Part shown: in pieces, positions 9,639-51,942 of the stretch
Position numbering within the stretch: position 1 is the first letter of the stretch
Layout of the letters: each line of letters opens with the position of its first letter
NCBI GenBank assembly: GCA_002353295.1
Contig: DEJG01000019.1
Coordinates: forward strand, 104,977-168,976
From: Prevotella sp. UBA2754
Lineage (GTDB): Bacteria; Bacteroidota; Bacteroidia; Bacteroidales; Bacteroidaceae
Length of the DNA stretch: 64,000 bases
Direction of reading: 5' to 3'
Program-made: the position numbers and the translations under genes
The notes under the pieces: generated by a model
What the model was told of the DNA's origin: nothing
The model's database searches: none
Seen by the model: only the letters and a program-made list of their open reading frames with translations

Positions 9639-9669
9639 CAGTCGATATCGAACACAAAAAGAAATATTG

Positions 9670-11922: not shown

Positions 11923-11937
11923 CATGAACGATAAGCA

Positions 11938-14082: not shown

Positions 14083-14093
14083 GTTAGAAAGAA

Positions 14094-14735
14094 ATGTATG
14101 TAGTGCTAGCAGATAATCAGGACATCACAAGGGCTGGCATGATGTATGTCTGTCAGGAAATGGAGCATGTGGAAATGCACCGTGCTGAGGATAAGACGGA
14201 GTTGATAGAACAACTCAAACAGCATCATGATGCCGTTGTGGTGATTGACTACACGTTGTTTGACATCAATGACGTGGATGAATTGGAGATTCTCTACCAG
14301 CGCTTTCCAGAAGTACAGTGGGTATTGTTTAGCGTTGACCTTTCCGGCGATTTTGTCAGAAGGGTCATCGCTATTGCCCCTCGCTTTAGTATTCTGTTGA
14401 AAGAGTCATCCATTCAGGAAATTCGTGAATGCTTGATGTTTGCCCAGCGCTACCAACGCTTTATCTGTCAGCGCATGATGGAGATTCTGCTAGCGCCACA
14501 AGTGAAGCGTACGGAAGAAGAAGTGAAATTGACCCGCACGGAGATAGAAATACTGAAGGACATTGCCTTGGGACTGACTACCAAAGAAATTGCTGAACGC
14601 CGCTTCTCCAGTTTTCATACGGTGAATACCCATCGCAAAAATATTTTCAGGAAACTGGGCGTCAATACGGTGCACGAGGCAACGAAGTACGCACTTCGGG
14701 CAGGACTGGTAGATTCGGCAGAATACTATATTTAG
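14094..14735 (+). CDS. LuxR/NarL-family response regulator
   Basis: N-terminal receiver-like domain (VIDY, LLK) and C-terminal LTRTEIEIL..TTKEIAE..SFHTVNTHRKNIFRKL HTH. Confidence 0.9.
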   Translation: MYVVLADNQDITRAGMMYVCQEMEHVEMHRAEDKTELIEQLKQHHDAVVVIDYTLFDINDVDELEILYQRFPEVQWVLFSVDLSGDFVRRVIAIAPRFSILLKESSIQEIRECLMFAQRYQRFICQRMMEILLAPQVKRTEEEVKLTRTEIEILKDIALGLTTKEIAERRFSSFHTVNTHRKNIFRKLGVNTVHEATKYALRAGLVDSAEYYI

Positions 14736-35598: not shown

Positions 35599-35949
35599 AT
35601 GATGAGTAAATTTTTACTTTTTTGTGGAATGTGCATGTTGCCGATGATAGCAGTTGCAAATGGAACAGAACCAGAAAAAGTTCAGGCCAGCGAACTTCAA
35701 AAGATTACATTTGAAGGTGACAATGTAATTTTGCATTTCAAGGATGGTTCAAAGGCAGATTTAGTGAAGGACATGACAGAAATTGTCATCGACTTCAGTA
35801 ATCCTACGAATATTGAAACATTACGTCAGATAGAGTCTCTTAAAGGACAATCCGTTTACAATCTCCAAGGTCAGCAGATAGGCCAAGGTGTAGAAGGTTT
35901 GAAGAAGGGGCTTTATATCATTGGTGGCAAGAAGGTGATTATTAAATAA
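35599..35949 (+). CDS. Small secreted protein: signal peptide, ~45-aa beta module, T9SS-type CTD
   Basis: Tail TNIETLRQ..SVYNLQGQQI..LKKGLYIIGGKKVIIK is a typical Prevotella CTD. Confidence 0.8.
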   Translation: MMSKFLLFCGMCMLPMIAVANGTEPEKVQASELQKITFEGDNVILHFKDGSKADLVKDMTEIVIDFSNPTNIETLRQIESLKGQSVYNLQGQQIGQGVEGLKKGLYIIGGKKVIIK

Positions 35950-38861
35950 TGAGAGGAAAACACGCTATGAAAAGACTGATGTCGTTTTTTACGCTGCTTG
36001 TCCTGATGTTGGGACTGAGTCAGAGCATGAATGCACAGACATGGGAATTTGCAATACTTGATGCTAATGATGCAGAATTGATGGATAAGGATGCCAATTG
36101 GTATCACAGCAAAGAATCAAAGAAAAATCGCTATAGTTATACTAAGGCACTTGATAAAGCTGCGGTTACAGCCAATGGTCAGGAAATAGCATATACAAAG
36201 GGTTTGTTATTTTCTATTGACGCAGTTGAATCTGGCGAAGGTAATTTGCGTGCTGGCAACGACACCTCTAACAAGCGTATGTGGTTGGCTGGAAAATCAA
36301 AGATTACTATTCCTGGATTGAAAGCAGGAATGCAAATCACGGTATCTTGTATGTCCTCTAGCAAAACAGAGGCTCGTTGTATTAATACAACTAATATCAC
36401 AGCAGTTTCTGGTGACTTCGGTACAAAGAAAAAGGGTGATGGTTCTGCCTCTACTAATGTTGGTACAGTAACTGCAGATGGAGATGTTGTACTTACTATG
36501 GATGGTGCTATGTATATCTATATGATTAAAGTGGAGGATCCAAATGAGGATGTAGAAGGTGGGAATGATGGCGAAGGTGGAGAAACGACGCCAACCACTA
36601 ACGATCTTTCTACCTCAGCTAACTCTATGAAGAATCAGGCTGTGCTGAAACTCAAGGATGGTACCAACAAGTACTATAACACCGAGTCATTGCAGAGTAT
36701 TGATTTTGATGACAACAAAGTTAAGGTTGTTTATGACGCTCAGACAGCCTATACATTTGAAGATCAGGTTGCTGGTATTGGCTTTAATAAAGCAGAGAAG
36801 CAGCAGTCAGGTGAGGTGGTGAATATTGATGGCAAGGTGAAAATTACAGAGTATAACGGCTGGTTAGAGTCCGCCTATGTGAAGTTCGACTTGCTTGATG
36901 GTGCATCTTCCTATAATGTATATTATAAAGGTGGCGATATAACAACTTATAAGGCTATTGACAATAAGTTGGTACGTAACTATGGCACTTTTGGTCGTGC
37001 TGATGTGGTTGGTTTGAAGGCTGCTGCAGACTATGCTATCAAGGTTGTTCCGGTTAATGCGAACGGTACTGAATTGGTTGATAATGCTAATGAGGTGACA
37101 GGCTTGGTAGTGAAGAGCTATAGTCGCGAGGGCTTTGCCTTCATGAACGGTTTCACACCAGGTGCTTACAATTATGATGGTACATTGAAGAGTGGTGCCA
37201 AGGTACTCTATGTGACTAAGAACACTGCCAAGACTATTTCTACCACTGTGGCAGGGGCTGAGGAGAATCCCTGTGTAGGTATTCAGGCCATTATCGACGC
37301 CTATCAGAAGGGTAAGGACACTACTCCTATTGCTTTCCGTCTTATCGGTTTGATTGAAAAGGACGACCTCGATGGTATCAGTAGCTCTTCTGAGGGTATC
37401 CAGATTAAGGGTAAGAATGCTGATGCGCTGATGCCTATCACCATAGAAGGTGTCGGTGATGACGCCACGGTACGTGGCTTCGGTTTTCTGGTACGCAATT
37501 CTAAGGGCGTTGAGTTCCGTAACTTTGCTGTTATGCGCTGCATGGACGATGGAATCTCTTTGGATACAGACAACTCAAATATCTGGGTTCACCACACAGA
37601 TCAGTTCTATGGTAAGCATGGTTCTGGTGACCATGCTAAGGGTGATGGTGCAGTCGACGTGAAATCTGACTCTAAGTTTGTGACTGTTAGCTACAACCGT
37701 TTTTGGGATACTGGTAAGAGCAATATGTTCGGTATGAAGAGCGAGTCAGGTCCTAACTACATCAGTTACGACCACAACTGGTTCGACCACTCAGACTCTC
37801 GTCATCCACGTGTTCGCACGATGACAGTTCACGTATGGAACAACTACTTTGATAATGTTGCCAAGTATGGTGTTGGTGCTACCACAGGTTCTAGCGTTTT
37901 CGTAGAGAGCAATTACTTCCTGAAGACAAAGAAGCCAATCCTCAGTTCACTTCAAGGTACTGATGGAATGGGTTCCAAGGGTACTTTCTCGGGCGAGAAT
38001 GGCGGTATGATTAAAGCCTATGGAAACTATATGGATAAGTCTGCTGCTCATTTCAGCTACTATAATCAGGATAATCCTTCTGCTAAGGGCTATGATGCTT
38101 ATGAGGTAACCAATCGTAATACCACGATTCCTGAAACGGAGAAGACTTTGGTAGGTGGTACTACCTATAACAATTTTGATACCGATCCTTCTAAGATGTA
38201 CAAGTACACAGCAGTTGAAGCTGAGGATGTTCCTGCTCTCATAACTGGTTACTACGGCGCCGGTCGTATGAATCATGGTGACTTCAAGTATACTTTCAAA
38301 GATAATGTTGGTGTCGATGCAGACGACTCTGCCTATGATGAAATATTGGGTGGTAAGCTCGATAGCTATAAGTCTTCGTTCGTAGGTTTCTTTGGTGAAG
38401 ACAATTCCAGCCAAGGTGGTGACCAAGGCAACCAAGGGGATCATCAGGGAGATGACCAAGGTGGAGAGCAAGGTGGCGAAACTACTCCAGAAGGAACTAT
38501 TTTTGCAAAGTTTGATGGTGCTCCTTCTGTTAGTATGTTCAAAGTAACTGGAGAGTATGGTGATGGAAAGTCGACTTATAAAGGTACTTACGCAAAACAA
38601 GGTGCAAAACTGAATAGCAAAACTACAGTTACTTTTACTCCTGCTAAGAACTATAATATGACTTTGGTATTGTCTACCAGTAAAACGTGTCATGATGTAA
38701 AGTTGAATGGAACATTGACGACTGTTTCTGGAAAGGAATCTACTGAAGGAAAGTATTATGAAATGCAGCCTATTGCCATTTCCGCAAATACTGAATACAG
38801 GATTACTAAGGGGAGCAGTGAAGGAATACTGATGTTTATCGTCCTCGAGCCCATAGAGTAA
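35949..38861 (+). CDS. Multidomain PL1 pectate lyase with probable C-terminal CBM77-like module
   Basis: IWVHH, DGAVDVK, RHPRVR, VHVWNNYF. ATG overlaps the upstream TAA; alternative start 35967. The C-terminal ~115 aa resemble CBM77 from recall. Confidence 0.85.
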   Translation: MRGKHAMKRLMSFFTLLVLMLGLSQSMNAQTWEFAILDANDAELMDKDANWYHSKESKKNRYSYTKALDKAAVTANGQEIAYTKGLLFSIDAVESGEGNLRAGNDTSNKRMWLAGKSKITIPGLKAGMQITVSCMSSSKTEARCINTTNITAVSGDFGTKKKGDGSASTNVGTVTADGDVVLTMDGAMYIYMIKVEDPNEDVEGGNDGEGGETTPTTNDLSTSANSMKNQAVLKLKDGTNKYYNTESLQSIDFDDNKVKVVYDAQTAYTFEDQVAGIGFNKAEKQQSGEVVNIDGKVKITEYNGWLESAYVKFDLLDGASSYNVYYKGGDITTYKAIDNKLVRNYGTFGRADVVGLKAAADYAIKVVPVNANGTELVDNANEVTGLVVKSYSREGFAFMNGFTPGAYNYDGTLKSGAKVLYVTKNTAKTISTTVAGAEENPCVGIQAIIDAYQKGKDTTPIAFRLIGLIEKDDLDGISSSSEGIQIKGKNADALMPITIEGVGDDATVRGFGFLVRNSKGVEFRNFAVMRCMDDGISLDTDNSNIWVHHTDQFYGKHGSGDHAKGDGAVDVKSDSKFVTVSYNRFWDTGKSNMFGMKSESGPNYISYDHNWFDHSDSRHPRVRTMTVHVWNNYFDNVAKYGVGATTGSSVFVESNYFLKTKKPILSSLQGTDGMGSKGTFSGENGGMIKAYGNYMDKSAAHFSYYNQDNPSAKGYDAYEVTNRNTTIPETEKTLVGGTTYNNFDTDPSKMYKYTAVEAEDVPALITGYYGAGRMNHGDFKYTFKDNVGVDADDSAYDEILGGKLDSYKSSFVGFFGEDNSSQGGDQGNQGDHQGDDQGGEQGGETTPEGTIFAKFDGAPSVSMFKVTGEYGDGKSTYKGTYAKQGAKLNSKTTVTFTPAKNYNMTLVLSTSKTCHDVKLNGTLTTVSGKESTEGKYYEMQPIAISANTEYRITKGSSEGILMFIVLEPIE
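38412..38480 (+). repeat. Gly/Gln/Asp linker repeat in the pectate lyase
   Basis: QGGDQGNQGDHQGDDQGGEQGGE; GGETTP also ends the earlier acidic linker. Confidence 0.75.
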
Positions 38862-38912
38862 TGGAACGAAATACATACTAAACAACAACTACTAATTCAA
38901 ATCAAGGAGAGG

Positions 38913-38940
38913 GAGCCACGCGTGATGCGTGGCTCTTTCT
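38913..38940 (+). terminator. Intrinsic terminator
   Basis: GAGCCACGC-GTGAT-GCGTGGCTC followed by TTTCT. Confidence 0.8.
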
Positions 38941-39018
38941 GCATGTTAATGAGTCTAAATTTACGTTATAAAATTTATAAATTCAAGAATGACGAGATGA
39001 ATTTTACTAACTATTTGT

Positions 39019-39026
39019 TATCTTTG
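39019..39026 (+). promoter_or_regulatory. -7 box of the FHA/kinase operon
   Basis: TATCTTTG about 40 nt upstream of the ATG at 39068. Confidence 0.65.
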
Positions 39027-39067
39027 TCTGACATAAATATAGATTAAATAACCAATAATTGAAAAAT

Positions 39068-39766
39068 ATGAAACAAGATGAAACATTCGTAAAGGGTGTA
39101 AATAATCCCTACGCACGTTCTCGTGGTGCACAACGCACAGGTAATGAAACTTATATTCCTGGGATGAATGACGTTTCACCAGGTAGTGCACCTTCACAAG
39201 CATCTCCTCAGGCAAAACCTAATACACCTGTTGTTGGATTCCTGTATTCCATTTCTCGTAAGGGAATAGGTGAGTACTGGCCTCTTCATCTGGGAACCAA
39301 TACTATCGGAAGAGCAGATGATTGTGATATCTGTTTAAAAGAAATGTCGGTGTCAAGTAAGCATGCAACCCTCAGCATTAAGCAGATGAAGAGCACCCAC
39401 AAACTTATTGCCAGTATTCGTGATACTGGGTCGAAAACGGGTATGTATCTGAATGACGAGGAGCTTGACTACGAGAATCATGCATGTAAGGCCAATGATA
39501 TTATTACGGTGGGAGCTAATTATAAGTTATTACTGATACTTATTGATGCTGAGGAATATGGCCTGTCGGTTTCTGATGAGTTTGTAGAAGATAAAGAAGT
39601 TGCTGATGATGGTTTTGACTATCAGACTCAGGGGCGTGGTGGTTTTGATGATGCCACTCATAATAATTTCCGTCCTTATAGTGCCGACCATCGTAATGTT
39701 GATACAGGAACTGTGGATCTGAGTGGTGCAGGTTTTGATGAACCAGGAGGAACAGAAATGATGTAA
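39068..39766 (+). CDS. Soluble FHA-domain protein with disordered N- and C-terminal tails
   Basis: TIGRADDCDI..VSSKHA..DTGSKTGMYLN. Confidence 0.88.
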   Translation: MKQDETFVKGVNNPYARSRGAQRTGNETYIPGMNDVSPGSAPSQASPQAKPNTPVVGFLYSISRKGIGEYWPLHLGTNTIGRADDCDICLKEMSVSSKHATLSIKQMKSTHKLIASIRDTGSKTGMYLNDEELDYENHACKANDIITVGANYKLLLILIDAEEYGLSVSDEFVEDKEVADDGFDYQTQGRGGFDDATHNNFRPYSADHRNVDTGTVDLSGAGFDEPGGTEMM

Positions 39767-39795
39767 AGTATAATTGTATAATTATAAACAAACAA

Positions 39796-41421
39796 ATGTC
39801 ATCTTTAATATATATACAAGGCGAGGAAGAGAAGAAAAACCATATCCATTATGAAGTTGATCCCTCACAGCCTTCTTTAGGTGAAGGTGGTATGGGGCAG
39901 GTATTGAAAGGAGTAAGGGTCAACGAGGCTAATGGTGTGCGTATGGATGTGGCCATTAAATTCTTGTTTGAAGACTTACCTGCACATGCAATTGAAAGGG
40001 CTAAGCGTGAAGCTTCTATTCAGATTCATAATGAGAATTTGGTGGAGATGTTTGGCTTTATAGAAGTCGTGGAGAATGCTCAAAGTGCACATCCAGTCAA
40101 GCGCTATCATGTAGTCAGTGAACTATTGCAGGGCGTCATGCTCTTTGACTTGCTGAATGGTAAAACTACGGATAAGAATGGTCTGGAAGTTCCTTTCGCT
40201 CAAGAATTATATAACAAATATCAGAATGATCGTTTTGGTTTTGCTGTATTTATTGTTAAGAATATCCTTTCAGGTTTAATGGCTCTTCATGATAAGGGTT
40301 ATATTCATCGCGATCTGGATCCCAGTAATATTATGATTACCACTGACCGTAAGGTGAAAATTATAGATTTCGGTATTGCCAAACGGCTCGACAATCTGAA
40401 TACGCAAGACCAGCAACTCACCAGTACTGGACAGTTTATCGGCAAGGCAGCCTATGCTGCACCGGAATTGGTTCTGGGTGATGTGCATAATCAGGATAAA
40501 ACAACAGACATTTACGCTGTTGGCATTATGCTCTTCCAGTTTATCACGGGCAGTTTGCCCTTTGATGGCACGATGGCCGAACTCATCAAGAAGCAACTTA
40601 ATGAGAAAATACCTCTTAAACTGATCCCATACAAAGCCGTGCGCAATATCGTGGCTAAGGCTACTGCTAAGAAACAGACTGACCGTTATCAGTCAGCTAC
40701 AGAGATGCGTGTAGATTTGGAGCATTTGTCGAAAACTGATGCAGTACCTTCTGCAACGAGTGCAGGAGAGATGGTTGCCAGTATTGCAGATGTGAAGAGT
40801 GGCAAGGGGAAACTGATTGGTATAATTGCTGCCGCAGTTGTAGTGATAGGTATCATTTTAGGTTTTGTCTTCGGTGGAGGTTCCGATGCTCCTGTAGCTG
40901 AAACTGCCAAGCCTCAACAACCTGCAGCCTTAACTGATGTTGCTCCAGATGCCGGCGCGCTGATAACTGACGCTATTAAGAAAATGTCAGATCCAAGCAC
41001 TGTGAATGAGGGTGTCAGATTGTTGACAGAGGTAGCAACGAAGTATGGTGACAAGAAAGAAGCTGCAGATGGTTTAGCCCTATTGGCTGCATTGATGCAA
41101 CCTGCAGACATTGAGAATACCACTCAACAGATTAAGACACTCCGTGAGGCTACAGCCAATGACATTTTCCGTGATGTCGATAAGGCTCATGCATACGCTG
41201 AGCAAGCAGTCAAAGCTAATCCAGAGAGTTATAAGGCACTCTATGAGTTGGCTACAGATTATTTGGGTGGTGAGGCCAGAATGAAAAAAGATCCTGATTT
41301 TCCAAAAGCTCAGCAACTGTTTACCAGTGGCTTGAAATATGCTCAAGACAGTGCAGACAAGGAGTATATCGATCTCTTTACCAGTCGTCTTGAATTGGTT
41401 AAAGGTTTGTTGGAGGAGTAA
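39796..41421 (+). CDS. Membrane Hanks-type Ser/Thr kinase with C-terminal helical (Sel1/TPR-like) domain
   Basis: GEGGMG, VAIK, HRDLDPSN, DFG, YAAPE; TM LIGIIAAAVVVIGIILGFVF. Confidence 0.92.
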   Translation: MSSLIYIQGEEEKKNHIHYEVDPSQPSLGEGGMGQVLKGVRVNEANGVRMDVAIKFLFEDLPAHAIERAKREASIQIHNENLVEMFGFIEVVENAQSAHPVKRYHVVSELLQGVMLFDLLNGKTTDKNGLEVPFAQELYNKYQNDRFGFAVFIVKNILSGLMALHDKGYIHRDLDPSNIMITTDRKVKIIDFGIAKRLDNLNTQDQQLTSTGQFIGKAAYAAPELVLGDVHNQDKTTDIYAVGIMLFQFITGSLPFDGTMAELIKKQLNEKIPLKLIPYKAVRNIVAKATAKKQTDRYQSATEMRVDLEHLSKTDAVPSATSAGEMVASIADVKSGKGKLIGIIAAAVVVIGIILGFVFGGGSDAPVAETAKPQQPAALTDVAPDAGALITDAIKKMSDPSTVNEGVRLLTEVATKYGDKKEAADGLALLAALMQPADIENTTQQIKTLREATANDIFRDVDKAHAYAEQAVKANPESYKALYELATDYLGGEARMKKDPDFPKAQQLFTSGLKYAQDSADKEYIDLFTSRLELVKGLLEE

Positions 41422-41438
41422 ATTTTAAAGGAAGCAAC

Positions 41439-42356
41439 ATGCCGGGACAGGTCACCAAGAAGGGAAGCATCATCTATCTGAATGCCTATGGACAATGGTA
41501 TCAGTATGACGAATCGCAGGCTCCGTTAGGAGCAGGCGCCATGGGTGTGGTGTATCTCGGACAGCATTGTCAGACTCGTGAACCTGTAGCTGTTAAACGG
41601 GTGGTTGATCGCTATGCCAACATACCTGAGATTCGTCGCCGAGCCCATCAGGAGGCCGATCTGATGTTCAGTCATCCTAATTTAGTTGAAATGTTGGGTT
41701 GTTGTGAGGTTACTCCAGGACAGGGTCCCATCTTCATCATCAGTCGTTACGTGCGTGGTGAGAATATTGACAAGTTCATCAATGCCCATGTACGTTCACT
41801 CCCTAATGCAGAACACCGCATCTGCGAACTGTTCTTGCCTGTGCTTGATGCCTTGGCCTATATCCATACCAAAGGAATCATTCACATGGATATCAAACCC
41901 TCCAACATCATGATGGAGCAAGGACGTAATGTCCGACTGATGGACTTAGGTATTGCCGATGTGTCGGAAACTATCAACAGCTCTACGTCAGGCATGATGG
42001 GCACCCCGAAGTATGCAGCTCCAGAGCAGTTCTCCGATGTAGCCAGTAAACCGCAACTTACCTCGGCGACAGATATCTATGAGGCAGGAATTACGCTTTA
42101 TGAACTTATCACGAAGCAGAACCCTTTCTCTGCATCCACGGTAGCTGAATCCAAAGCACTTCATCATGGTATGATATTGCCAAAGGTGCAAAGTATCTCA
42201 GATACAGTTTTTGAGGTTACTCGCAAGGCCACAGCAATTCGTCCAGAAGACCGCTACCAAAGTGCCAATGAAATGAAGTCGGCTCTCAAAGAAGCCCTTC
42301 CACCTCGTAATTATACTAAGTTTGACCGTTTCCTTTCGGGAATATTTAAGAAATAA
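41439..42356 (+). CDS. Soluble Hanks-type Ser/Thr kinase (non-RD)
   Basis: GAGAMG, VAVK, HMDIKPSN, DLG, GTPKYAAPE; no TM. Confidence 0.92.
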   Translation: MPGQVTKKGSIIYLNAYGQWYQYDESQAPLGAGAMGVVYLGQHCQTREPVAVKRVVDRYANIPEIRRRAHQEADLMFSHPNLVEMLGCCEVTPGQGPIFIISRYVRGENIDKFINAHVRSLPNAEHRICELFLPVLDALAYIHTKGIIHMDIKPSNIMMEQGRNVRLMDLGIADVSETINSSTSGMMGTPKYAAPEQFSDVASKPQLTSATDIYEAGITLYELITKQNPFSASTVAESKALHHGMILPKVQSISDTVFEVTRKATAIRPEDRYQSANEMKSALKEALPPRNYTKFDRFLSGIFKK

Positions 42357-42364
42357 AAATCATT

Positions 42365-43765
42365 ATGAATGCAATAAAGACATCCTTGCCTTTTGCTGGC
42401 TTTTGGGATACCCGACAAGGAGGCCGCCCGGAGAATCAAGACTCCTGTGGCTTTATTGACACAGAAAAGGGACTCATAGCCGTGGTCTGCGATGGAATGG
42501 GCGGGGGGCCCGGTGGACAGTTGGCCTCCACGATCGCTGTTCAGAAGATTGTGGAGTATGTGGTCGGGGCTCCTCTAGATATGCCATATACGGATATGGT
42601 GGCTCAGGCTATAGAGTATGCCCATCAAGCTATATTGGCTAAAACTGCCGAGCAGCCAGCTCTGCGTGGTATGGGTTCTACAGCTACTGTAGTACTTATC
42701 AATCAACAATCGGCCATCATAGCTCATGTCGGTGATAGTCGCATCTACCAATTTCGTCGTGGTAAGATGATATTCCGTACGGCCGACCATTCGATGGTGG
42801 GTGACTTGGTGCGTAATGGTACATTGACGGAAGAGCAGGCCCGCCTGTCATCACAATCGAACATCATCACCAAAGCCTTAGGCAGCAAACTGTCCAACTT
42901 GGCTGAGGTGACGGAGCGTCCTTACGAGAAAGGCGATCGTTTTATGCTTTGTACAGATGGTATCTGGGGAGCTATGCCTGAACCCAACCTTGTTAAACGG
43001 GTAGCTAAGACTCCCTCTCTCTCTGGAGCCGTTGATAGCATGGTATTGACAGTTGAGGATATAGGGCGGAAGAGTGGTAACCATCACGACAATCTGACGA
43101 TAGCTTTATTAGAAACCAAACAAGATTCATTACTGAAAGAGAAAATGAGCAAGACAACATTACGTATTTTAATCGTGTTGGCAGTTATTTGCCTGCTGAG
43201 TGTTATTCTGAATATTGTGTTGATGACTCGACCTAATACTCCGATAAATAAGGAAGAAGTCGACAATATGGCATTGGAACTCGACAACCGAGGACAGCGC
43301 ATTCGAATCCTTGAAGACTCCATCAATGTCTTGTTAAATAATGTGGCAGGCGCTAAACAAGAGGCCGCAGATGCTACTTTGAAGGTGGCTAAGGAGAAAG
43401 AGGACGCTGCTGAGAAAGCAAAGAATGAGGCTGAGCAGAAGGCTCAGGAGGCCAAGGAAGCAGCAGACAAGGCGAAAGCTGCTGCTGATCAGGCAAAGGC
43501 TGCTGCAGAGTCCATCCAGAAGTCGCGCAATGATGTCATTGCCCAGCTAACTAAGATGAAGGATATGCAGGAGAGTGCCCAGCGCAAGCAGTTGCGTTCT
43601 AATGCTATAGAAACCTTGAAAACATTGGCGGCTAAAGATGTCAAGAACAAGGCGGTCTATGATGATGTTCGTGAGAAACTGGGCAACAAGGTGGCTTTAG
43701 AGAATACGGATATGAGTAAAGGTCATTATAGCATCCTCATCAAGAATCTTCAATCAATTAAATAA
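42365..43765 (+). CDS. PP2C/PPM Ser/Thr phosphatase with TM and Ala/Lys/Glu coiled coil
   Basis: RPENQD, VCDGMGG, HVGDSR, CTDG, DNLT; TM ILIVLAVICLLSVILNIVL. Confidence 0.92.
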   Translation: MNAIKTSLPFAGFWDTRQGGRPENQDSCGFIDTEKGLIAVVCDGMGGGPGGQLASTIAVQKIVEYVVGAPLDMPYTDMVAQAIEYAHQAILAKTAEQPALRGMGSTATVVLINQQSAIIAHVGDSRIYQFRRGKMIFRTADHSMVGDLVRNGTLTEEQARLSSQSNIITKALGSKLSNLAEVTERPYEKGDRFMLCTDGIWGAMPEPNLVKRVAKTPSLSGAVDSMVLTVEDIGRKSGNHHDNLTIALLETKQDSLLKEKMSKTTLRILIVLAVICLLSVILNIVLMTRPNTPINKEEVDNMALELDNRGQRIRILEDSINVLLNNVAGAKQEAADATLKVAKEKEDAAEKAKNEAEQKAQEAKEAADKAKAAADQAKAAAESIQKSRNDVIAQLTKMKDMQESAQRKQLRSNAIETLKTLAAKDVKNKAVYDDVREKLGNKVALENTDMSKGHYSILIKNLQSIK

Positions 43766-43774
43766 TATGTGCCT

Positions 43775-44497
43775 ATGAAGACAATCACTATAGGACGAGG
43801 CGAAGGATGCAATATCTACATCGACGACGAATCAATGAGCCGCCGTCATGCAATTATCAAGATTCCTACCTTTGGGGGTATGGAGATTGTGGACATGAGT
43901 AAGAACGGAACCTTTGTCAATGGGGTTCGCCTGCGTCCTAATGTGCCATTTCCCGTTAAACGTAAGGATGTTGTAAACTTTGCTGATGTCAGGGAGTTAG
44001 ACTGGTCATTGGTGCCCGATCCAATGAAATACTATAAACTGGCTGGCATTATTGTAGGTGGCATCATTGTACTATTATTGGCAGTCTTCCTCTTTAAGAA
44101 CCTGTTTAGCAGTTCAGCAAAAGCACCTGTTACCCCCGCTACTGAACATGTTCAAAAACCTATACGGATGGAAGAATATAAGAAACCTGCTCAGGCGGAA
44201 ACAGAACCTGTCGAAACACCTGCTGAAGAACAGCCGTCATCTCCACCTTCTGCTGCACCTGATGCTACAACAGGTACCGATAACCAGATCATTGATGTTT
44301 ATGGAGCAGCCCGCAGTGCTAAGAAAAAACGTGAGGCTGAGGAGCGTGTTCGTCGGCAGAAGGCCAAAGAAGTGCAGCGACAGAAAGAGCAACAAAAGAA
44401 AGAACAGCAACAAAAAGAGCAGCAAAAACAAGAGGAAAATAAGCAGCCTTCTGATGGAAATTCTTCTAAGAAAGAGTATAAACCCGAAATGATATAA
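43775..44497 (+). CDS. FHA-TM protein with Pro/Ala-rich and Gln/Lys/Glu-rich tail
   Basis: ITIGRGEGCNI..MSRRHA..SKNGTFVNG; TM LAGIIVGGIIVLLLAVFLF. Confidence 0.9.
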   Translation: MKTITIGRGEGCNIYIDDESMSRRHAIIKIPTFGGMEIVDMSKNGTFVNGVRLRPNVPFPVKRKDVVNFADVRELDWSLVPDPMKYYKLAGIIVGGIIVLLLAVFLFKNLFSSSAKAPVTPATEHVQKPIRMEEYKKPAQAETEPVETPAEEQPSSPPSAAPDATTGTDNQIIDVYGAARSAKKKREAEERVRRQKAKEVQRQKEQQKKEQQQKEQQKQEENKQPSDGNSSKKEYKPEMI

Positions 44498-44515
44498 CCT
44501 AAAATTGATAAATAT

Positions 44516-46165
44516 ATGAGAATTATTAAGATTGGTAGTTCGCAATCATGCGACCTCGTATTGGATAGCCAGTACGTCAGCAGTCTACATGCTGAAATGA
44601 CAATTCTTGACGATGGGCAGATTATCCTTGAAGACAAGAACAGTAAGAATGGTACAACCGTAGGTAACAAGAAACTGGAACCAGGTCGTGAAACGAATGT
44701 ACAGCGTGGCGACCGTATTTCCTTTGCTGATGTACCTTTAGTCTGGGCCAAGGTGCCTGTAGCTGAAAAGTTGACGGCTTATAAGTCTGTCTATAACATC
44801 GGCTCTAACTATCGTAACGAGATTATTCTAAACAGCCAGACAGTCAGTCGTTTCCATGCCTCTGTACGTGTAGGTAAGGATGGTAAGGTGTATATCCATG
44901 ACAATGGCAGTCGAAACGGTACAATGGTCAACGGAGCGAAAATTGCCTCCAACAAGGATGTACGCATAAAGAAGGGTGATAATATCGTCTGTGGCACGGA
45001 GGATGTCACCGAACAGATTTTGGCAGTCATGCCTAAGACCAACACCACACTGATTTATGCTATTGCTGGTGCTGCCTGTCTGCTCGTCCTCATGGGTATC
45101 ATTTATGCCGTATGGCCTAAAGGTGGTGATGATCAACCTACAGCCTTTGTCAGCGACTCTACAGCTGTTGTTTCTTCTACTACTTCCAGTGTGTCACCAG
45201 AGAAATATCGCAATACAGTGGTTTACGTCGGGGCGCAGTATCATTATATAGCTGAGTTCGAAGATAACCCCATGCCTGACACTTGGAATGGCAAGATAGA
45301 AGATATTGCTGCACAGCAGCCATATAGTGCCACAGCTTTCTTCCTTGACCGTAAGGGATATTTAGGCACTAACAGACATGTGGCTGTTCCTTGGGAATAC
45401 CGTTCTGGTGAGGAAGACAATCGCGTACGCGAAAGCATTGAATACCGTATTGAACTGATGCGTCGTACATGTATGTTCATGCAGACAGGTGACGAACGCC
45501 TCACACAGAGTAATAAGGGGCGCGATTTCTCTATGCCCACGATGCAGGCTTTTGCCCAGACTGACTTGTTCAAGGCTATCAACGCTCATATCGGGAAGTA
45601 TCCTAATTGGCAGGCAGAACTGAATAAAGTAATCGACCGTCTTAATCGTTCGCGTTATTCTATCTCTGGGGCCATTGATTACATTATGGTAGGTTATGCA
45701 GGTCGCAACTATACGCATCTGGATGAATTCCAGCGTTGTGATGTTGTAGCTGATTCCAAGGATAAAGAAATTGATGTGGCGCTTTTGCAACTTAATGACA
45801 AAAAGACTCCTCAAGATGTTGAACAGGTATTCAGTCCTAGCAGTTTTTCTAATGATCGTCTGGTGCCTTTGAAGGATAAACTTTTCACAATCGGTTATCC
45901 CGCAGGTCTGTCTTGGGCACTTGACAAAAGAGCCAAATCGTTAGAACCCAGTATCAAGGAGACCAAGTGTAGCAAGGAACCAAGTAAGTATGATTTTGAA
46001 CTTCAGGAACAGTCTGTTGGTGGTAGTAGTGGCTCCCCCATCTTCAACGAGGCAGGCCAGTTGGTTGGTGTGTTATGGGGTGGAACAAGTATTGCCGGTG
46101 GATTCACCAAAGCAGTTCATGCTAAGTATCTGAAGAAAATTTATGATGAAGAAGCTGTACAGTAA
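44516..46165 (+). CDS. FHA-FHA-TM-trypsin-like serine protease fusion
   Basis: Two FHA-like repeats (VSSLHA..SKNGT; VSRFHA..SRNGT), TM, triad TNRHVA / IDVALL / GSSGSP. Confidence 0.88.
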   Translation: MRIIKIGSSQSCDLVLDSQYVSSLHAEMTILDDGQIILEDKNSKNGTTVGNKKLEPGRETNVQRGDRISFADVPLVWAKVPVAEKLTAYKSVYNIGSNYRNEIILNSQTVSRFHASVRVGKDGKVYIHDNGSRNGTMVNGAKIASNKDVRIKKGDNIVCGTEDVTEQILAVMPKTNTTLIYAIAGAACLLVLMGIIYAVWPKGGDDQPTAFVSDSTAVVSSTTSSVSPEKYRNTVVYVGAQYHYIAEFEDNPMPDTWNGKIEDIAAQQPYSATAFFLDRKGYLGTNRHVAVPWEYRSGEEDNRVRESIEYRIELMRRTCMFMQTGDERLTQSNKGRDFSMPTMQAFAQTDLFKAINAHIGKYPNWQAELNKVIDRLNRSRYSISGAIDYIMVGYAGRNYTHLDEFQRCDVVADSKDKEIDVALLQLNDKKTPQDVEQVFSPSSFSNDRLVPLKDKLFTIGYPAGLSWALDKRAKSLEPSIKETKCSKEPSKYDFELQEQSVGGSSGSPIFNEAGQLVGVLWGGTSIAGGFTKAVHAKYLKKIYDEEAVQ

Positions 46166-47526
46166 TGAACATTAGGAAAATTATCATATTATTAATAATG
46201 TGTCTTGCCCTGCCTATAGTGGGGCAAGCACAATCTGCTCACTGGGCCATTACACCCACCTATCAGTCTGTGACACCTTTTGCTCCTAATCTGTTCAAGG
46301 TGAAGACCTATGCGAGTGTAGGCATTTGTGATGCTGACGAGAAATGGGTGGTATCGTTGGCTATGGACTCTATCACTAATGTAGTTAATGGCTATGCCCT
46401 TGCACTCTCCAAGTCGAAAGACAAGTATCGTATTACCTATATTATTCGCGAGAATGGTACTCGTGAGGCTGTGAAAGATGAGGTGTACGCAGGCGAATAT
46501 CTTTTCTTTGAAGAAGGTCGTTGCCCGGTGACGAATAAAAAGGGAAAGTATGGTTATATCGATACTTCCGGTGCATTGGTTGTGGAGTGTGATTACACTT
46601 CTGCTCTTCCATTTCTCAACGGACGGGCTCTTGTAACGAAGGAAAAGGGCGGTTTTATCGGACTTCTGAAAAAAGGGAAAGCCAAAGTCTATGAAATAGA
46701 CCTTCAAGGCAAAGCCCGTGAGGTCAGCCAGATCGATCCTTCAGCACTGAAACCCAGTTATATGGAGAAGGTGAATGCGACCTACACACCGAATCCGGAT
46801 CCGTCTTATCAGCGTTATTCAGATGATAAGGAATATGGCTATAGAAAAGGAAACAATGTTATCCTCCCTGCTCAGTTTGAAGCTGCTGGCAGTGTTTCTG
46901 ATGATTGTGCCATCGTGATGGTCAACCATCTTTTTGGAGTCATCCGCTTCAATACTGCCGATGTTGATTGCAAAGTTACAGAGGCAGGTAGTCATCTAAA
47001 GGCGCAGGTTAAGCTTCCTGGTGTGTGGGAAAACAAAGTAGCCACCATTGTACGTGAAGTGAATGGTTCCTCTCGAAAAGAGTTTGAGATGGAGGGTACT
47101 GGACTGGAGCGTTCGCTTGATGTTACTATTGATAAAGAAAGTGGCAAGAAGATCTACGAATTAGTATGCGACAAACTGGTTCTTTGGCGTAGTGTCAACA
47201 AGGCTGGTAGTGGCAGCGACGACAATGATGATAAGGGCGATTCTTCTGGACGCATATCTGTCAGTGTTCCTGCTACCGTCAAGGCCAATGCCAAGAATGT
47301 TTGTTCTGTACCCGTTACAGTAAGGAACCGAGGCGGTTCTGCACGTACCATATCCATTAAGTTAAGTACTGGACAGAGCAGTTCCATCAATGTGGCTGCA
47401 GGAAAGTCGGGTACCGTAACCGTTAAAGTTCCTGTAACAAAGAATACAACATGTAGGATTACTGCATCAGGCGGTGGTTTCTCCAGTTCATGCTCCACTG
47501 CACTGAAAGCAGCCATTAGACTATAA
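46165..47526 (+). CDS. Secreted WG-repeat protein with C-terminal Ig-like beta domain
   Basis: Signal peptide, KKGKYGYIDTSG..ALPFLNGRA and EYGY..VILPAQFEAAGSVSDDCAIV repeats. Confidence 0.78.
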   Translation: MNIRKIIILLIMCLALPIVGQAQSAHWAITPTYQSVTPFAPNLFKVKTYASVGICDADEKWVVSLAMDSITNVVNGYALALSKSKDKYRITYIIRENGTREAVKDEVYAGEYLFFEEGRCPVTNKKGKYGYIDTSGALVVECDYTSALPFLNGRALVTKEKGGFIGLLKKGKAKVYEIDLQGKAREVSQIDPSALKPSYMEKVNATYTPNPDPSYQRYSDDKEYGYRKGNNVILPAQFEAAGSVSDDCAIVMVNHLFGVIRFNTADVDCKVTEAGSHLKAQVKLPGVWENKVATIVREVNGSSRKEFEMEGTGLERSLDVTIDKESGKKIYELVCDKLVLWRSVNKAGSGSDDNDDKGDSSGRISVSVPATVKANAKNVCSVPVTVRNRGGSARTISIKLSTGQSSSINVAAGKSGTVTVKVPVTKNTTCRITASGGGFSSSCSTALKAAIRL

Positions 47527-47535
47527 TATATAATA

Positions 47536-48198
47536 ATGACAATAGAACCTATAGCGTATTTCCACTCGCCGTTCACGTCAAAATTTGGCGTGCCACGGCA
47601 GAGTGGAATTGTTTCTGACTTGAAGGGCAGTGTCGTGTTTGTTCCCCAATATTCCAAGCCTGAGGCTTTGCGGGGTTTGGACAATTATGATTATCTGTGG
47701 CTGATATGGGGATTCTCCGAGAATGAGCAGGCACCCAAACATGCTACTGTCCGACCTCCTTTGTTAGGAGGAAATGAGCGGGTAGGGGTCTGGGCCACGC
47801 GGTCCTCTTTTCGACCTAACAATCTAGCTCTGTCATCTGTTCGCATCCATGAAATCCATCCTGATGTTCCCAGTATCGAGGTGTTGGGGGCCGATTTAAT
47901 GGACGGAACACCCATATACGATGTCAAACCCTATCTGCCATATGTCGATAGCCATCTTGATGCTCGTGGAGGTTTTACAGATAATCATCAGTGGCAACGC
48001 TTGCAGGTAGAGGTTCCTCCCCATCTTCGTTCCTTCTTCTCAGAAGAACAGTGGTCAGTCATCATTGAGGCACTGTCTTTGGATCCGCGTCCGCATTATC
48101 ACACTGACTCCACACGTCAGTATGGCATGCCCTTTGCTGGTCGTGATATTCTTTTTGTTGTATCTGATCAGACACTCTCTGTTATCGCTATTCGGTGA
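47536..48198 (+). CDS. tsaA: tRNA (N6-threonylcarbamoyladenosine(37)-N6)-methyltransferase TrmO/TsaA
   Basis: KFGVPRQSG, VRPPLLGGN..GVWATRSSFRPN, DLMDGTPIYDVKPY. Confidence 0.92.
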   Translation: MTIEPIAYFHSPFTSKFGVPRQSGIVSDLKGSVVFVPQYSKPEALRGLDNYDYLWLIWGFSENEQAPKHATVRPPLLGGNERVGVWATRSSFRPNNLALSSVRIHEIHPDVPSIEVLGADLMDGTPIYDVKPYLPYVDSHLDARGGFTDNHQWQRLQVEVPPHLRSFFSEEQWSVIIEALSLDPRPHYHTDSTRQYGMPFAGRDILFVVSDQTLSVIAIR

Positions 48199-48249: not shown

Positions 48250-48281
48250 TTTGGAATGTTGAAGAAATATCCATATATTTG
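48250..48281 (+). promoter_or_regulatory. Primary-sigma promoter
   Basis: TTTG 48250-48253, 20-nt spacer, TATATTTG 48274-48281. Confidence 0.75.
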
Positions 48282-48315: not shown

Positions 48316-49110
48316 ATGTCTACACTAATGATCATCATATTGGCTGTTATTGTTTTGGCGCTCATGGGAGCCTTATGGTATATCATGACCTTGAAGAGTC
48401 AACACTATGCGACATCAAAGTCTGAACGCATGAAACTGGCGTTTCTTAACAATATCAACAACGAGATTCGAGCTCCTTTGAAATCTGTGACAGAATTGGC
48501 AGGCATGGTAGCCAAGGAAGATTTGTATCTCTCCAAAAACGAGAAGCGCAATATAGCCGATCAGTTAATCTACAATGCCAACCTCGTTTCAACCTTGATG
48601 GACGAAATCATGATGTTCTCTGATAGTGAGAAAGAAGCTCATCGCCTGCATATTGAGTCTTTCAGTCCTAATGCGCTCTGTCGTCGTTGCTTGGAAGCCA
48701 ATATGCTCAGTCTTTATCATCGGCAAGCTGTCAAATTGAACTTTAAACGCGAGATTAATGATGAGTTCTTTATGAAGAGCGACCGTCATTTGGTTGAACT
48801 GATTCTCAACAAACTGATTCTCAATGCTTGTCGCTTTACCGAGGTGGGTGAAATCGTTGTAGGGTGTAATCTCAGCGAGAATGTCGATTGCTTGACAATC
48901 TTTATAGAGGATACTGGAGTAGGCGTTCCTGAAAATCGTCGCAACAAGTTATTCACCTGGTTTGATCAGCCTGATGACATGCAGGATGAGGTTGAACTTG
49001 ATTTGAGTATTTGTCAGCGCATCTCGCAGAAGATAGGTGGAACACTTTTTATGGACGAGCACTATCAGCGTCGTGGCACTCGCTTTGTGCTTCTACTCCC
49101 GTTGCACTGA
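48316..49110 (+). CDS. Degenerate membrane histidine kinase-like protein (His replaced by Asn)
   Basis: N-terminal TM, FLNNINNEIRAPL at the H-box position, NACRF, DTGVGV, LDLSI in place of GLGLSI. Confidence 0.82.
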   Translation: MSTLMIIILAVIVLALMGALWYIMTLKSQHYATSKSERMKLAFLNNINNEIRAPLKSVTELAGMVAKEDLYLSKNEKRNIADQLIYNANLVSTLMDEIMMFSDSEKEAHRLHIESFSPNALCRRCLEANMLSLYHRQAVKLNFKREINDEFFMKSDRHLVELILNKLILNACRFTEVGEIVVGCNLSENVDCLTIFIEDTGVGVPENRRNKLFTWFDQPDDMQDEVELDLSICQRISQKIGGTLFMDEHYQRRGTRFVLLLPLH

Positions 49111-50473: not shown

Positions 50474-51070
50474 TTAGTCTTTGTATTGTATCTTGACTTG
50501 TTTGAAGCCCATGCCCTGCATCACCTGACGTACCTGAGCCTCCCCATTCTGTCGGGCAGTCTCTATGTTTTGGGGGGTCAATCCGCGCTGTAGCATACGC
50601 TGATAGGCTCTGCGCATCATGGTCTCGCGGTCTTTGGCTGTCCATGTGCCACTCTCAAAAAAACTCTTTGTACGGGCTTCGTCGATGAAATCTTTGTCCA
50701 GCAGTCCTATCTGTGGCAGTGTTATGTCTAAGGTGTCTTCGTTTACGCTAATCCATCCTGATTCCACTTGTTTCAAGTTGATGCCCAGTCGCATGGTGCC
50801 GTAATAGATTCTCACCAGTTGGTCGTCTGTAAAGATGCCACGACGGATGGTGTCAACCATCTCCTCGTCGCTGATAGCCAAAAACTCCCATTCGCCGATG
50901 GCTTTAATGCTCTGTATCTGCTGTGGGGTGATGTCAATGTGCTGGTCGGCTTCCACTTCCACGTGGCTTGTCTTGACACTGCGCCATATCCATCCTATCA
51001 GTATTACTGCAGCGATGATGACGATAGCATATAGTGCTATGATGTGTTTATTCCCTTTTACCATCTTCAA
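50474..51070 (-). CDS. DUF4230-like membrane-anchored protein
   Basis: N-terminal TM, IGEWEFL, YGTMRLGINL, ITLPQIGLLD. Confidence 0.7.
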   Translation of the reverse strand: MKMVKGNKHIIALYAIVIIAAVILIGWIWRSVKTSHVEVEADQHIDITPQQIQSIKAIGEWEFLAISDEEMVDTIRRGIFTDDQLVRIYYGTMRLGINLKQVESGWISVNEDTLDITLPQIGLLDKDFIDEARTKSFFESGTWTAKDRETMMRRAYQRMLQRGLTPQNIETARQNGEAQVRQVMQGMGFKQVKIQYKD

Positions 51071-51725
51071 TATTCATGTTGATCAGTGTCCGAATGTCTC
51101 TCAGACCATATTCCTTGCGGAACTGGATGGTGATGTCCTGCTCCTTATATCCCATTTGCGCAATCAGGGGCACTAATACACGTGCAGCATTCTCCTGAGC
51201 CATCGCAATGATGCCTAGCTGTGGAATGCTCTCAATGATGGCAGCCCGTCCCTGTTGTTCGTAGTTGGTCATCTCTGCATCAGTGAAATGCGACCTTACC
51301 AGTCCTACATATTCCTTGATGTTTTTTTGGTCTATCTTCGAACTTGTCATCACCACCTTGGGATCAGGCAGAGTAATAATGATTTTACCATCTTCGCGTT
51401 CCACATTCTTTTCCGAAAACTCGCTCATGTCGATGTAGGCCTTCAGGGTGGCATCCATTGGAATGGCTATTTTACGGTCGCCCAATGGCATCTTGATGTT
51501 GAAGTCCTGCCAAAGTACCGACCCCTTGAGTCGAATCACGTCGTCATGGGTCACAATCTTGTGAATCTTGTATTCTGTAGTGTAGATGCGTGAACACTGC
51601 TGAATCTGATTGACCAGAACAGGAATCGAGTCAGACCTTTCCGTCGTCACCTGCACTCTTTCATGCCGACTGCAACTGCAGCAGCATATCACGAAAAACA
51701 ACGATATGTATAGTATTCTCGACAT
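51048..51725 (-). CDS. DUF4230-like protein (possible lipoprotein)
   Basis: Start reassigned to MSRILYISLFFVICCCSC (51725), below the -7 box at 51745-51752; LKAYIDMS, ITLPDPKV. Confidence 0.72.
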   Translation of the reverse strand: MSRILYISLFFVICCCSCSRHERVQVTTERSDSIPVLVNQIQQCSRIYTTEYKIHKIVTHDDVIRLKGSVLWQDFNIKMPLGDRKIAIPMDATLKAYIDMSEFSEKNVEREDGKIIITLPDPKVVMTSSKIDQKNIKEYVGLVRSHFTDAEMTNYEQQGRAAIIESIPQLGIIAMAQENAARVLVPLIAQMGYKEQDITIQFRKEYGLRDIRTLINMNIEDGKRE

Positions 51726-51942
51726 TTTGTCAGCGATTTGACTGCAAAGATAGTTAAAAAATATCAAAATGCTACATTTCTATCATTTTTTTTATCTTGT
51801 TATTAAACTTTTTTTTTGTTTGCGCGTCATATTCATGAAATCAGACATAACGAGTATTATGACTGCTCGACTCTCAACTGACACAAAAGGTAAAAAAGTG
51901 GAACATCATAGTGATTTAGGTTAACATAGTGTTTTTTCATTT

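Follow-up and report, generated by a model that had tools for sequence, protein, structure and literature searches.

The operon described here, seven genes (g1 to g7) within a 64,000-nucleotide stretch of the genome of the rumen bacterium Prevotella sp. UBA2754 (contig DEJG01000019.1; the whole stretch is called the window below), encodes two protein kinases, a PP2C phosphatase, three FHA proteins and a membrane-anchored serine protease, and its nearest described counterparts share parts of this content. In the Rv1747/PknF system of Mycobacterium tuberculosis, tandem N-terminal FHA domains regulate a transmembrane (TM) effector through its cognate kinase, and phosphorylation is a positive regulation of that effector (PMC3138270, PMC8339232). 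The TagQRST-PpkA-PppA-Fha1 pathway of the Pseudomonas aeruginosa H1 type VI secretion system (H1-T6SS) joins the ABC-like TagTS and the outer-membrane lipoprotein TagQ to a kinase, a PP2C and an FHA protein, and a review names carriers of its genes in genera of Pseudomonadota only, with no Bacteroidota equivalent listed (PMC13584744). KKP of Pf prophages, a mostly prophage-borne module defined by kinase-CSD and kinase-FHA fusions, likewise places a PP2C next to a pair of Ser/Thr kinases and also involves FHA (PMC11341870). Two kinases, a TM PP2C, and one soluble and one TM FHA protein are encoded both in the operon and in the actinobacterial fhaA-fhaB-pstP-rodA-pbpA-pknA-pknB cluster. DegS, a protease whose activity is allosterically gated by a regulatory domain, offers a further comparison. 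Bacteroidales are dominant in gut and rumen communities and, to our knowledge, their Ser/Thr phospho-signalling is almost unstudied. The original prediction for this operon knew of no functional description of its architecture; we likewise found none, nor any description of a Bacteroides, Prevotella or Bacteroidetes FHA/kinase/PP2C/protease system, in the literature searched, which was largely without subscription journals.

We read the operon as a chromosomal, vertically maintained trans-membrane phosphothreonine switch of the Bacteroidota, the output of which would be a membrane-tethered periplasmic serine protease, and we give this reading an even chance of being right. Confidence in the annotation, and in the operon as a conserved functional unit, is much higher than confidence in this class of mechanism. 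The ORF list with Pfam domains places the seven open reading frames (ORFs) on the + strand at 39059/39068-47526, as follows.

39068-39766, + strand: g1, soluble FHA protein of 232 aa (Pfam FHA, E 4.6e-13; no TM segment by hydropathy)
39796-41421, + strand: g2, Hanks-type Ser/Thr kinase with one TM segment (about aa 340-362) and an extracytoplasmic domain of about 175 aa (Pkinase, E 2.5e-34)
41439-42356, + strand: g3, soluble Ser/Thr kinase of 305 aa without a TM segment (Pkinase, E 3e-41)
42365-43765, + strand: g4, PP2C phosphatase with one TM segment (about 265-288) and an Ala/Glu/Lys-rich extracytoplasmic tail (PP2C_2, E 2e-16)
43769-44497, + strand: g5, FHA domain, one TM segment (about 90-112) and a disordered Pro/Glu/Lys-rich tail (FHA, E 2.2e-17)
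44516-46165, + strand: g6, FHA-FHA-TM-serine protease (Pfam two FHA and Trypsin_2, E 1.3e-10; TM segment about 178-200 by hydropathy)
46165-47526, + strand: g7, secreted protein, all beta, comprising a WG-repeat module and a pair of Ig/CARDB-like domains (WG_beta_rep, E 8.3e-18)

Every domain that had been assigned to the seven proteins was recovered with Pfam, and the topology proposed for four of them (signalling domain inside, one TM segment, extension outside) holds at the level of hydropathy prediction.

The protein g6 is the putative output of the signalling system. Its AlphaFold2 (AF2) model, built from a 70-sequence alignment with a mean pLDDT of 88.1, has FHA sandwiches at residues 1-80 and 89-160, a TM helix at 177-199, a disordered tether at 201-222 and a chymotrypsin-fold domain at 228-547, in which a helical insert of about 80 residues (298-378) separates the catalytic His from the catalytic Asp. 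The protease domain is predicted to be periplasmic because a single TM segment divides it from cytoplasmic FHA domains; C408 is invariant and C485 nearly so, and this pair would be consistent with an oxidising compartment. The triad H288, D420 and S507 (GxSGSP) is invariant in 70 sequences, as expected of clan PA peptidases of the S1B/V8-like type, and the best PDB sequence match is V8 glutamyl endopeptidase. The top structural neighbours (Foldseek) are of the HtrA family (DegS, DegP, Deg2/9, HtrA1 and AlgW; E about 1e-8 to 1e-9), with TM-scores of 0.65-0.73 on protease-only targets. The protease fold, the N-terminal membrane anchor and the predicted periplasmic catalytic domain are thus shared with DegS/HtrA, whereas g6 differs in its cytoplasmic double FHA module, in the helical His-Asp insert and in a sequence nearer to V8-like S1B peptidases. 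It also differs in having no PDZ domain: Pfam detected none, the AF2 model stops at the protease C-terminal helix, and g6 falls outside HtrA/DegP/DegS (MEROPS S1C). A search of the full library with the protease domain only returned 593 representatives at 50% identity, 268 of them with E <= 1e-10. Among the best 150 were 106 full-length proteins, and 97 of these have two FHA domains (local FHA hidden Markov models), so the protease is nearly always joined to the tandem module.

Rv1747 resembles g6 as a TM effector with tandem N-terminal cytoplasmic FHA domains that is encoded beside a Hanks kinase, and its FHA domain is among the PDB sequence matches of g6. The likeness ends at the effector, since Rv1747 is an ABC exporter, whereas g6 has an S1 protease on the periplasmic side of its one TM segment. 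The linker between the FHA domains differs too, being long and carrying T152 and T210 in Rv1747 but only about 10 residues, with no conserved Thr, in g6. Unlike Rv1747-PknF, the operon also encodes a PP2C and additional FHA proteins.

All enzymes of the operon are predicted to be active, judging from catalytic residues in alignments of 57-79 orthologues per gene taken from related loci. In g2 the VAIK, HRD, D[FY]G and APE motifs are invariant (62 orthologues), as are K53, D151, N156, DLG and APE in g3 (70 orthologues), so both have the intact VAIK Lys, catalytic-loop Asp/Asn, DxG and APE of Hanks kinases. The residue ahead of the catalytic Asp of g3 is variable (Arg in 30, Met in 24 and Leu in 15), and the window copy, with HMD at this position, is a non-RD kinase because that residue is not Arg. 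The solved kinases nearest to g2 are PknB, StkP and PknA, and its ectodomain is probably helical or TPR-like, as composition and a weak TPR_16 match (E 0.0045) suggest. The metal-binding D26, D43, D198 and D242 of g4 are invariant in 79 sequences, as in PP2C phosphatases; its tail was called coiled-coil-like from composition and a weak MukB-like match.

On the reading side, the FHA pocket of g5 (R10, S24, H27 and N46; conserved in 73 sequences) is the fully canonical phosphothreonine (pThr)-binding set, and its tail matches the linker regions of TolA and GltJ below cutoff (NCBIfam). The start of g1 is likely ATG 39068 and not the listed TTG 39059, because orthologues align from that Met. Outside its FHA domain g1 is variable with disordered N- and C-terminal arms, yet these carry four Thr motifs conserved in 57 orthologues: T6 'kTxvPG', T28 'gTvvPGM', and the C-terminal 'GTVxlDG' and 'GGTxxM'. 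The Ser, His and Asn of the g1 pocket are invariant and the Arg is retained in 31 of the 57 sequences. From these features g1 appears to be a candidate phospho-adaptor or kinase substrate, and the best acceptor candidate of the operon. Its design recalls the FHA adaptors of the GarA/OdhI and FhaA types, with weak NCBIfam matches to OdhI and FhaB at best.

To place the operon, one genome per GTDB species was scanned, which gave 148 g6 relatives; 72 informative loci were kept, all of them Bacteroidales as judged by record title or shared neighbours. They span Prevotella, Phocaeicola, Bacteroides, Parabacteroides, Alloprevotella, Paraprevotella, Xylanibacter and Muribaculaceae. The order g1-g2-g3-g4-g5-g6-g7 holds in most loci, down to 30% identity (tblastn and ORF clustering), and was seen in full in Prevotella, Phocaeicola, Bacteroides, Parabacteroides, Alloprevotella and Muribaculaceae. 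A kinase and the PP2C are present in 72 of 72 loci and g5 and g6 in 70 of 72 each, followed by c4 (63 of 72), g1 (57 of 72) and g7 (56 of 72). The additional gene c4, which usually lies after g7 or g6, encodes a secreted protein that measures about 330-440 aa and belongs to no Pfam family. From locus to locus, the seven genes rise and fall together in identity (Spearman 0.31-0.81), and the recurrence of gene set and order in about 70 independent Bacteroidales loci is more than chance. The neighbourhood survey that had been proposed therefore bore out the co-conservation of the genes, in these 72 loci and in distant ones (L078 and L081/L082), and with enzymes predicted to be active it supports the claim that a writer/eraser/reader set is physically tied to a TM-anchored extracytoplasmic protease of trypsin fold.

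The conserved core is smaller than seven genes. The Bacteroidales core consists of a soluble kinase (g3), the TM-PP2C, the FHA-TM protein, the FHA-FHA-TM-protease and secreted c4, while g1, g2 and g7 are accessory and are exchanged for other envelope modules elsewhere. We take the functional unit to be a core of four to five genes with lineage-specific add-ons, because accessory genes swap while the core partners persist. The original prediction of a self-contained seven-gene circuit did not hold up, the window having three accessory genes and no c4. In Muribaculaceae and Bacteroides loci, genes for an outer-membrane protein (OMP) beta-barrel, a lipoprotein and an S41 peptidase are inserted between g7 and c4, and some of these loci have an extra FHA-TM or SH3 protein after c4. 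Eight loci (L029, L031, L035, L037, L039, L043, L051 and L053) are without g1, g2 and g7 and have, 5' of the core (L029:1-7799), an OMP-like gene, two unknowns, a TssR-like gene, an ABC ATPase and an FtsX-type permease. The TssR-like protein (794 aa) matches PF17643 with E 8e-9 and TssR_C with 23.4 bits, just under cutoff, and no other T6SS gene was found among the recurrent flank genes of these eight loci. Elsewhere g2 is relocated or missing: the TM kinase has moved downstream in some loci, and others have gained a second PP2C-kinase pair.

Among distant loci, L078 has the order FHA2-protease, FHA, PP2C, kinase-FHA and long kinase, and L081/L082 has a minimal kinase, PP2C, FHA2-protease and FHA set among genes for type IX secretion system (T9SS) cargo (Por_Secre_tail). 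The core set of kinase, PP2C, FHA(-TM) and FHA-FHA-TM-protease stays linked despite these changes of order. In L038 (an isolate genome of Bacteroides rodentium), the TM kinase (6370-7278) and c4 (16259-16900) look split or truncated, with extra ORFs between the fragments, which could be pseudogenisation or an assembly error. Records L032, L043 and L070 bear the title 'uncultured Staphylococcus' or 'Pseudoflavonifractor' but have a Bacteroidales-type operon with Muribaculaceae-like neighbours, and are probably mis-binned or mislabelled contigs of metagenome-assembled genomes.

The layout of the operon is compact, with gaps between successive genes of 29, 17, 8, 3, 18 and -1 nt, the last being an overlap of the g7 start with the g6 stop. 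The features at its two ends are as follows.

~38912-38940, + strand: GC-rich hairpin and T-run terminator of the pectate-lyase gene, GAGCCACGCG-TGAT-GCGTGGCTC then TTTCTG
39019-39026, + strand: Bacteroidetes-type -7 box TATCTTTG (TAnnTTTG), about 42 nt 5' of the g1 ATG
47536-48198, + strand: TrmO tRNA methyltransferase (Pfam TrmO_N, E 1.2e-39), 9 nt after g7

The 5' neighbour is a pectate-lyase gene (35949-38861; PL1 and CBM77 by Pfam), and its terminator hairpin, the inner stem of which was reported at 38919-38931 by the terminator scan, marks the 5' boundary of the transcription unit. Scans for sigma-70 promoters and terminators gave no excess over shuffle expectation, and the upstream hairpin alone was used. 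The claim that one -7 box precedes seven same-strand genes separated by at most about 30 nt was confirmed in that the box is intergenic and is the single + strand match to TAnnTTTG within 38862-39067. The window is enriched in the consensus, with 61 matches where 37.6 are expected, and the 8-mer of the box recurs within coding sequence on the + strand at 40712, 42317 and 43867. The second of these, TAAGTTTG at 42317-42324, fits the -7 box consensus and lies in the 3' end of g3, 48 nt before the PP2C start codon; it could be an internal promoter for g4-g7 or else a chance match.

The 3' end placed at 47526 stands for the seven tightly packed genes but probably not for the transcript. The transcription unit probably runs past this point, because TrmO follows on the same strand at 9 nt without an intervening terminator, and TrmO is probably co-transcribed with the operon. 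Linkage of TrmO to the operon is confined to close Prevotella relatives (8 loci), and the gene is a lineage-specific neighbour outside the signalling system, in the position that c4 takes up in other loci. The next intergenic -7 box, at 48274, stands ahead of a separate gene (48316-49110), syntenic with TrmO in close Prevotella relatives, for a 264-aa protein with an N-terminal TM segment and HATPase_c but no HisKA match, which may be a truncated or divergent histidine kinase.

In a sheep-gut metatranscriptome, near-identical contigs cover g1 to g7, and two of them bridge the g1/g2 and g2/g3 junctions. Coverage is zero at 38700-39023 and the contigs begin 3' of the -7 box at 39019; no RNA contigs from the same metatranscriptome lie over TrmO. 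These data support in vivo transcription and partial co-transcription of the operon.

The two secreted proteins, g7 and c4, have no PDB match by sequence search. The N-terminus of g7 is signal-like, its AF2 model has a pLDDT of 83, and the protein is fast-evolving, with a median identity of 29%. No tblastn match to c4 under E 0.04 was found in the window, and c4 is also missing from the three nearest relatives of the window locus. In the related locus L001, c4 (13728-14726) lies exactly between g7 and TrmO, its stop overlapping the TrmO start; the same site in the window is the 9 nt at 47527-47535. We regard the window as a derived, c4-less version of the locus, because c4 is near-constant elsewhere and sits between g7 and TrmO in L001.

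Under the trans-membrane switch proposed above, an envelope cue would reach the kinases through the g2 ectodomain, through secreted partner proteins or through both. The kinases would phosphorylate Thr residues on cytoplasmic segments of the system, the four Thr motifs of the g1 arms being the best candidates. These pThr marks would serve as docking sites for the FHA domains of g5 and g6, so that the TM proteins become assembled or clustered, and this assembly would change how active the HtrA-like protease beyond the membrane is, how it oligomerises or how it reaches its substrates. PP2C would remove the marks and reset the switch. The g2 ectodomain, secreted g7 and c4 are candidate sensors or substrates. 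The field of action would be the periplasm and outer membrane, because every accessory cassette is of envelope type, and the role is likely to be envelope homeostasis or remodelling, by processing of periplasmic or outer-membrane partners (g7, c4) or of the disordered g4 and g5 tails. An immunity role is not likely. Tentatively, we extend this to a four-gene 'inside-out' module of the Bacteroidota, in which cytoplasmic Ser/Thr phosphorylation, read by the tandem-FHA anchor, would directly gate a periplasmic HtrA-like protease, and lineage-specific cassettes (TM kinase and WG; OMP, lipoprotein and S41; TssR-like and ABC) would plug into the core.

Several observations weigh against this switch. 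The canonical Arg of the first g6 FHA domain is Ser in the window, with orthologues split between Ser (35) and Arg (31), and the Arg of the second FHA domain is displaced three residues downstream in 59 of 70 sequences. The Ser, His and Asn of the pThr pocket are invariant, but with the Arg replaced or shifted in its FHA domains, pThr binding by g6 is not certain. The window copy, without the core gene c4, could be partly decayed or rewired. The g7 model gave generic Ig/FN3/CARDB-like neighbours with low TM-scores (Foldseek) and no functional lead. The RNA evidence consists of low-depth metatranscriptome contigs, in which DNA carry-over is possible.

Conservation of the module extends from Prevotella to Muribaculaceae, and that of its core to more distant Bacteroidota. 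The module ties enzymes of three well-understood types to an output that is unusual, namely a protease with its regulatory FHA domains on the opposite side of the membrane. If the switch is real, it would be a new, previously undescribed route coupling eukaryotic-like kinase signalling to extracytoplasmic proteolysis under control from the cytoplasm, and a tractable entry point into envelope homeostasis of Bacteroidales. That different accessory cassettes surround the same core amounts to a natural experiment for finding the cue and the substrates.

By predicted domains the operon fits a generic Hanks kinase/PP2C/FHA signalling cluster, with the caveat on the g6 FHA pockets. None of the seven operon proteins reached the cutoff of an NCBIfam model, nor did c4, the FtsX permease or the TssR-like protein. 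It is unlikely, though conceivable, that the operon acts post-translationally to turn on and off a trans-envelope machine whose genes lie elsewhere (T6SS-iii-like, T9SS/gliding-like or another secretion system), with the protease as its processing or clearing subunit, in analogy to TagQRST-PpkA-PppA-Fha1. The operon and that pathway both have a Hanks kinase that spans the membrane and has a periplasmic domain, with PP2C as the eraser and FHA as the reader, and in some relatives the likeness extends to an ABC/FtsX pair, an outer-membrane-type protein and a TssR-like lipoprotein. These are the eight loci with such genes ahead of the core, TssR being a vWA-containing lipoprotein of the Bacteroidota T6SS membrane complex (PMC10781749), and the Pseudomonas pathway joins a comparable set (PMC13584744). 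The FHA domains match TagH, GltG and SctD models at domain level, the g5 tail is like GltJ/TolA linkers, and one distant locus lies among Por_Secre_tail genes. However, every NCBIfam match is far under cutoff, that of g6 to the TagH model TIGR03354 being 50.6 bits against a cutoff of 120.25 and covering the FHA domains only, which leaves g6 outside TagH. Among ORFs of at least 200 aa in the window and the recurrent clusters of the 10-kb flanks, no T6SS structural gene and no T6SS family was found, save the TssR-like paralogue in the eight loci. The window variant is without the TssR-like and ABC genes and, unlike the Pseudomonas pathway, which has no protease, the operon has TM-anchored FHA proteins and a protease output. 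Since the window is without T6SS genes, its operon was not accepted as a member of the T6SS threonine phosphorylation pathway, which is kept as an analogy through the TssR-like/ABC loci.

It is rather improbable that the operon serves in Bacteroidota as the counterpart of the module for growth and division in actinobacteria and Firmicutes (FhaA-FhaB-PstP-PknA-PknB or PrkC/PrpC), tuning peptidoglycan synthesis or cell shape, with the protease replacing or acting on wall-synthesis factors. The parts correspond well: a soluble FHA protein with disordered arms to FhaA/GarA, FHA with a TM segment to FhaB/FipA, the TM PP2C to PstP, and two kinases of which one has an ectodomain. The best NCBIfam and PDB matches of kinases and phosphatase are PknB/StkP, Stp1/IreP and FhaB_Rv0019c, and the broad, syntenic, housekeeping-like distribution also fits. 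All these matches nevertheless lie under equivalog cutoffs: PknB_PASTA_kin covered just the kinase domain and scored 156-172 bits where 450 are required, so the kinases are not of the PknB/PASTA type, and g4 scored 184 bits against Stp1/IreP, under the 230-bit cutoff. There is no PASTA domain, and no RodA or PBP gene in or beside the operon in any locus class; where the actinobacterial cluster has a PASTA sensor and RodA/PbpA, the operon has a protease and secreted beta-rich proteins. Its accessory genes indicate the outer membrane and periplasm and not the divisome.

The original prediction had also offered defence as a role. In PADLOC-DB v2, the kinase domains match PD-T4-6 and MADS6 (mad6) models (among the best 25 of 34-36 matches), the PP2C matches the candidate PDC-M21C, and the protease matches RT-Protease_XI and LmuA models. 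There was no PADLOC match for g1, g5 or g7, and the listed catalytic-domain matches elsewhere were generic, with no system-specific model among them; no defence-system assignment was made because the PADLOC matches are at domain level only. No relatives of the operon were found in IMG/VR (2.9 million viral contigs) or GenBank phages. A plasmid collection gave three matches, two FHA-only and one full-length, in a non-mobilizable 140-kb record of Phocaeicola massiliensis, a species in which the locus is also on a 3.1-Mb scaffold (L017). Genes for core functions make up the whole window (DPP-IV, RlmL, histidine kinases, subtilases, GH2/GH31, transporters, PGI, GpsA and a class II tRNA synthetase), and the operon is flanked by glycoside hydrolases, transporters, tRNA and central-metabolism genes; these flanks are conserved in close relatives alone and the operon order-wide.

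An anti-phage or conflict system, in which the kinases sense infection and trigger the protease effector, perhaps abortively, is therefore highly improbable: the PADLOC domain matches, the service of kinase/phosphatase modules such as KKP in defence (PMC11341870), the modular accessory genes and an integrase upstream in six loci speak for it, but FHA-only proteins and g7 are unmatched, KKP-defining fusions and phage relatives are absent, the lone full-length copy labelled as plasmid belongs to a record that is non-mobilizable, the flanking genes are of housekeeping type, synteny is order-wide with identity dropping with organism-label distance, and the effector faces the periplasm. Of the proposal 'defence or envelope-remodelling', the first half was not borne out and the second is favoured by the OMP, lipoprotein, S41, TssR-like and FtsX-type partners elsewhere. 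KKP membership was rejected as well, since g2 and g3 carry neither CSD nor FHA (Pfam); unlike KKP, the operon has its FHA domains on separate TM proteins and is chromosomal, with no phage copy found.

The tyrosine recombinase/integrase gene (Phage_integrase and Arm-DNA-bind_5) lies directly 5' of g1 in six Muribaculaceae-type loci, L049 (3933-5135), L050, L054, L056, L069 and L070, and is the sole hint of a mobile element near the operon. Elsewhere in the window, at 9667-14735, there is a tandem pair of Peptidase_S8 subtilase genes (751 and 714 aa) with a gene for a LuxR/GerE-type regulator after them. At 50474-51767 (- strand), two adjacent DUF4230 paralogues lie beside a sodium:alanine symporter gene, a trio that is syntenic in close Prevotella relatives.

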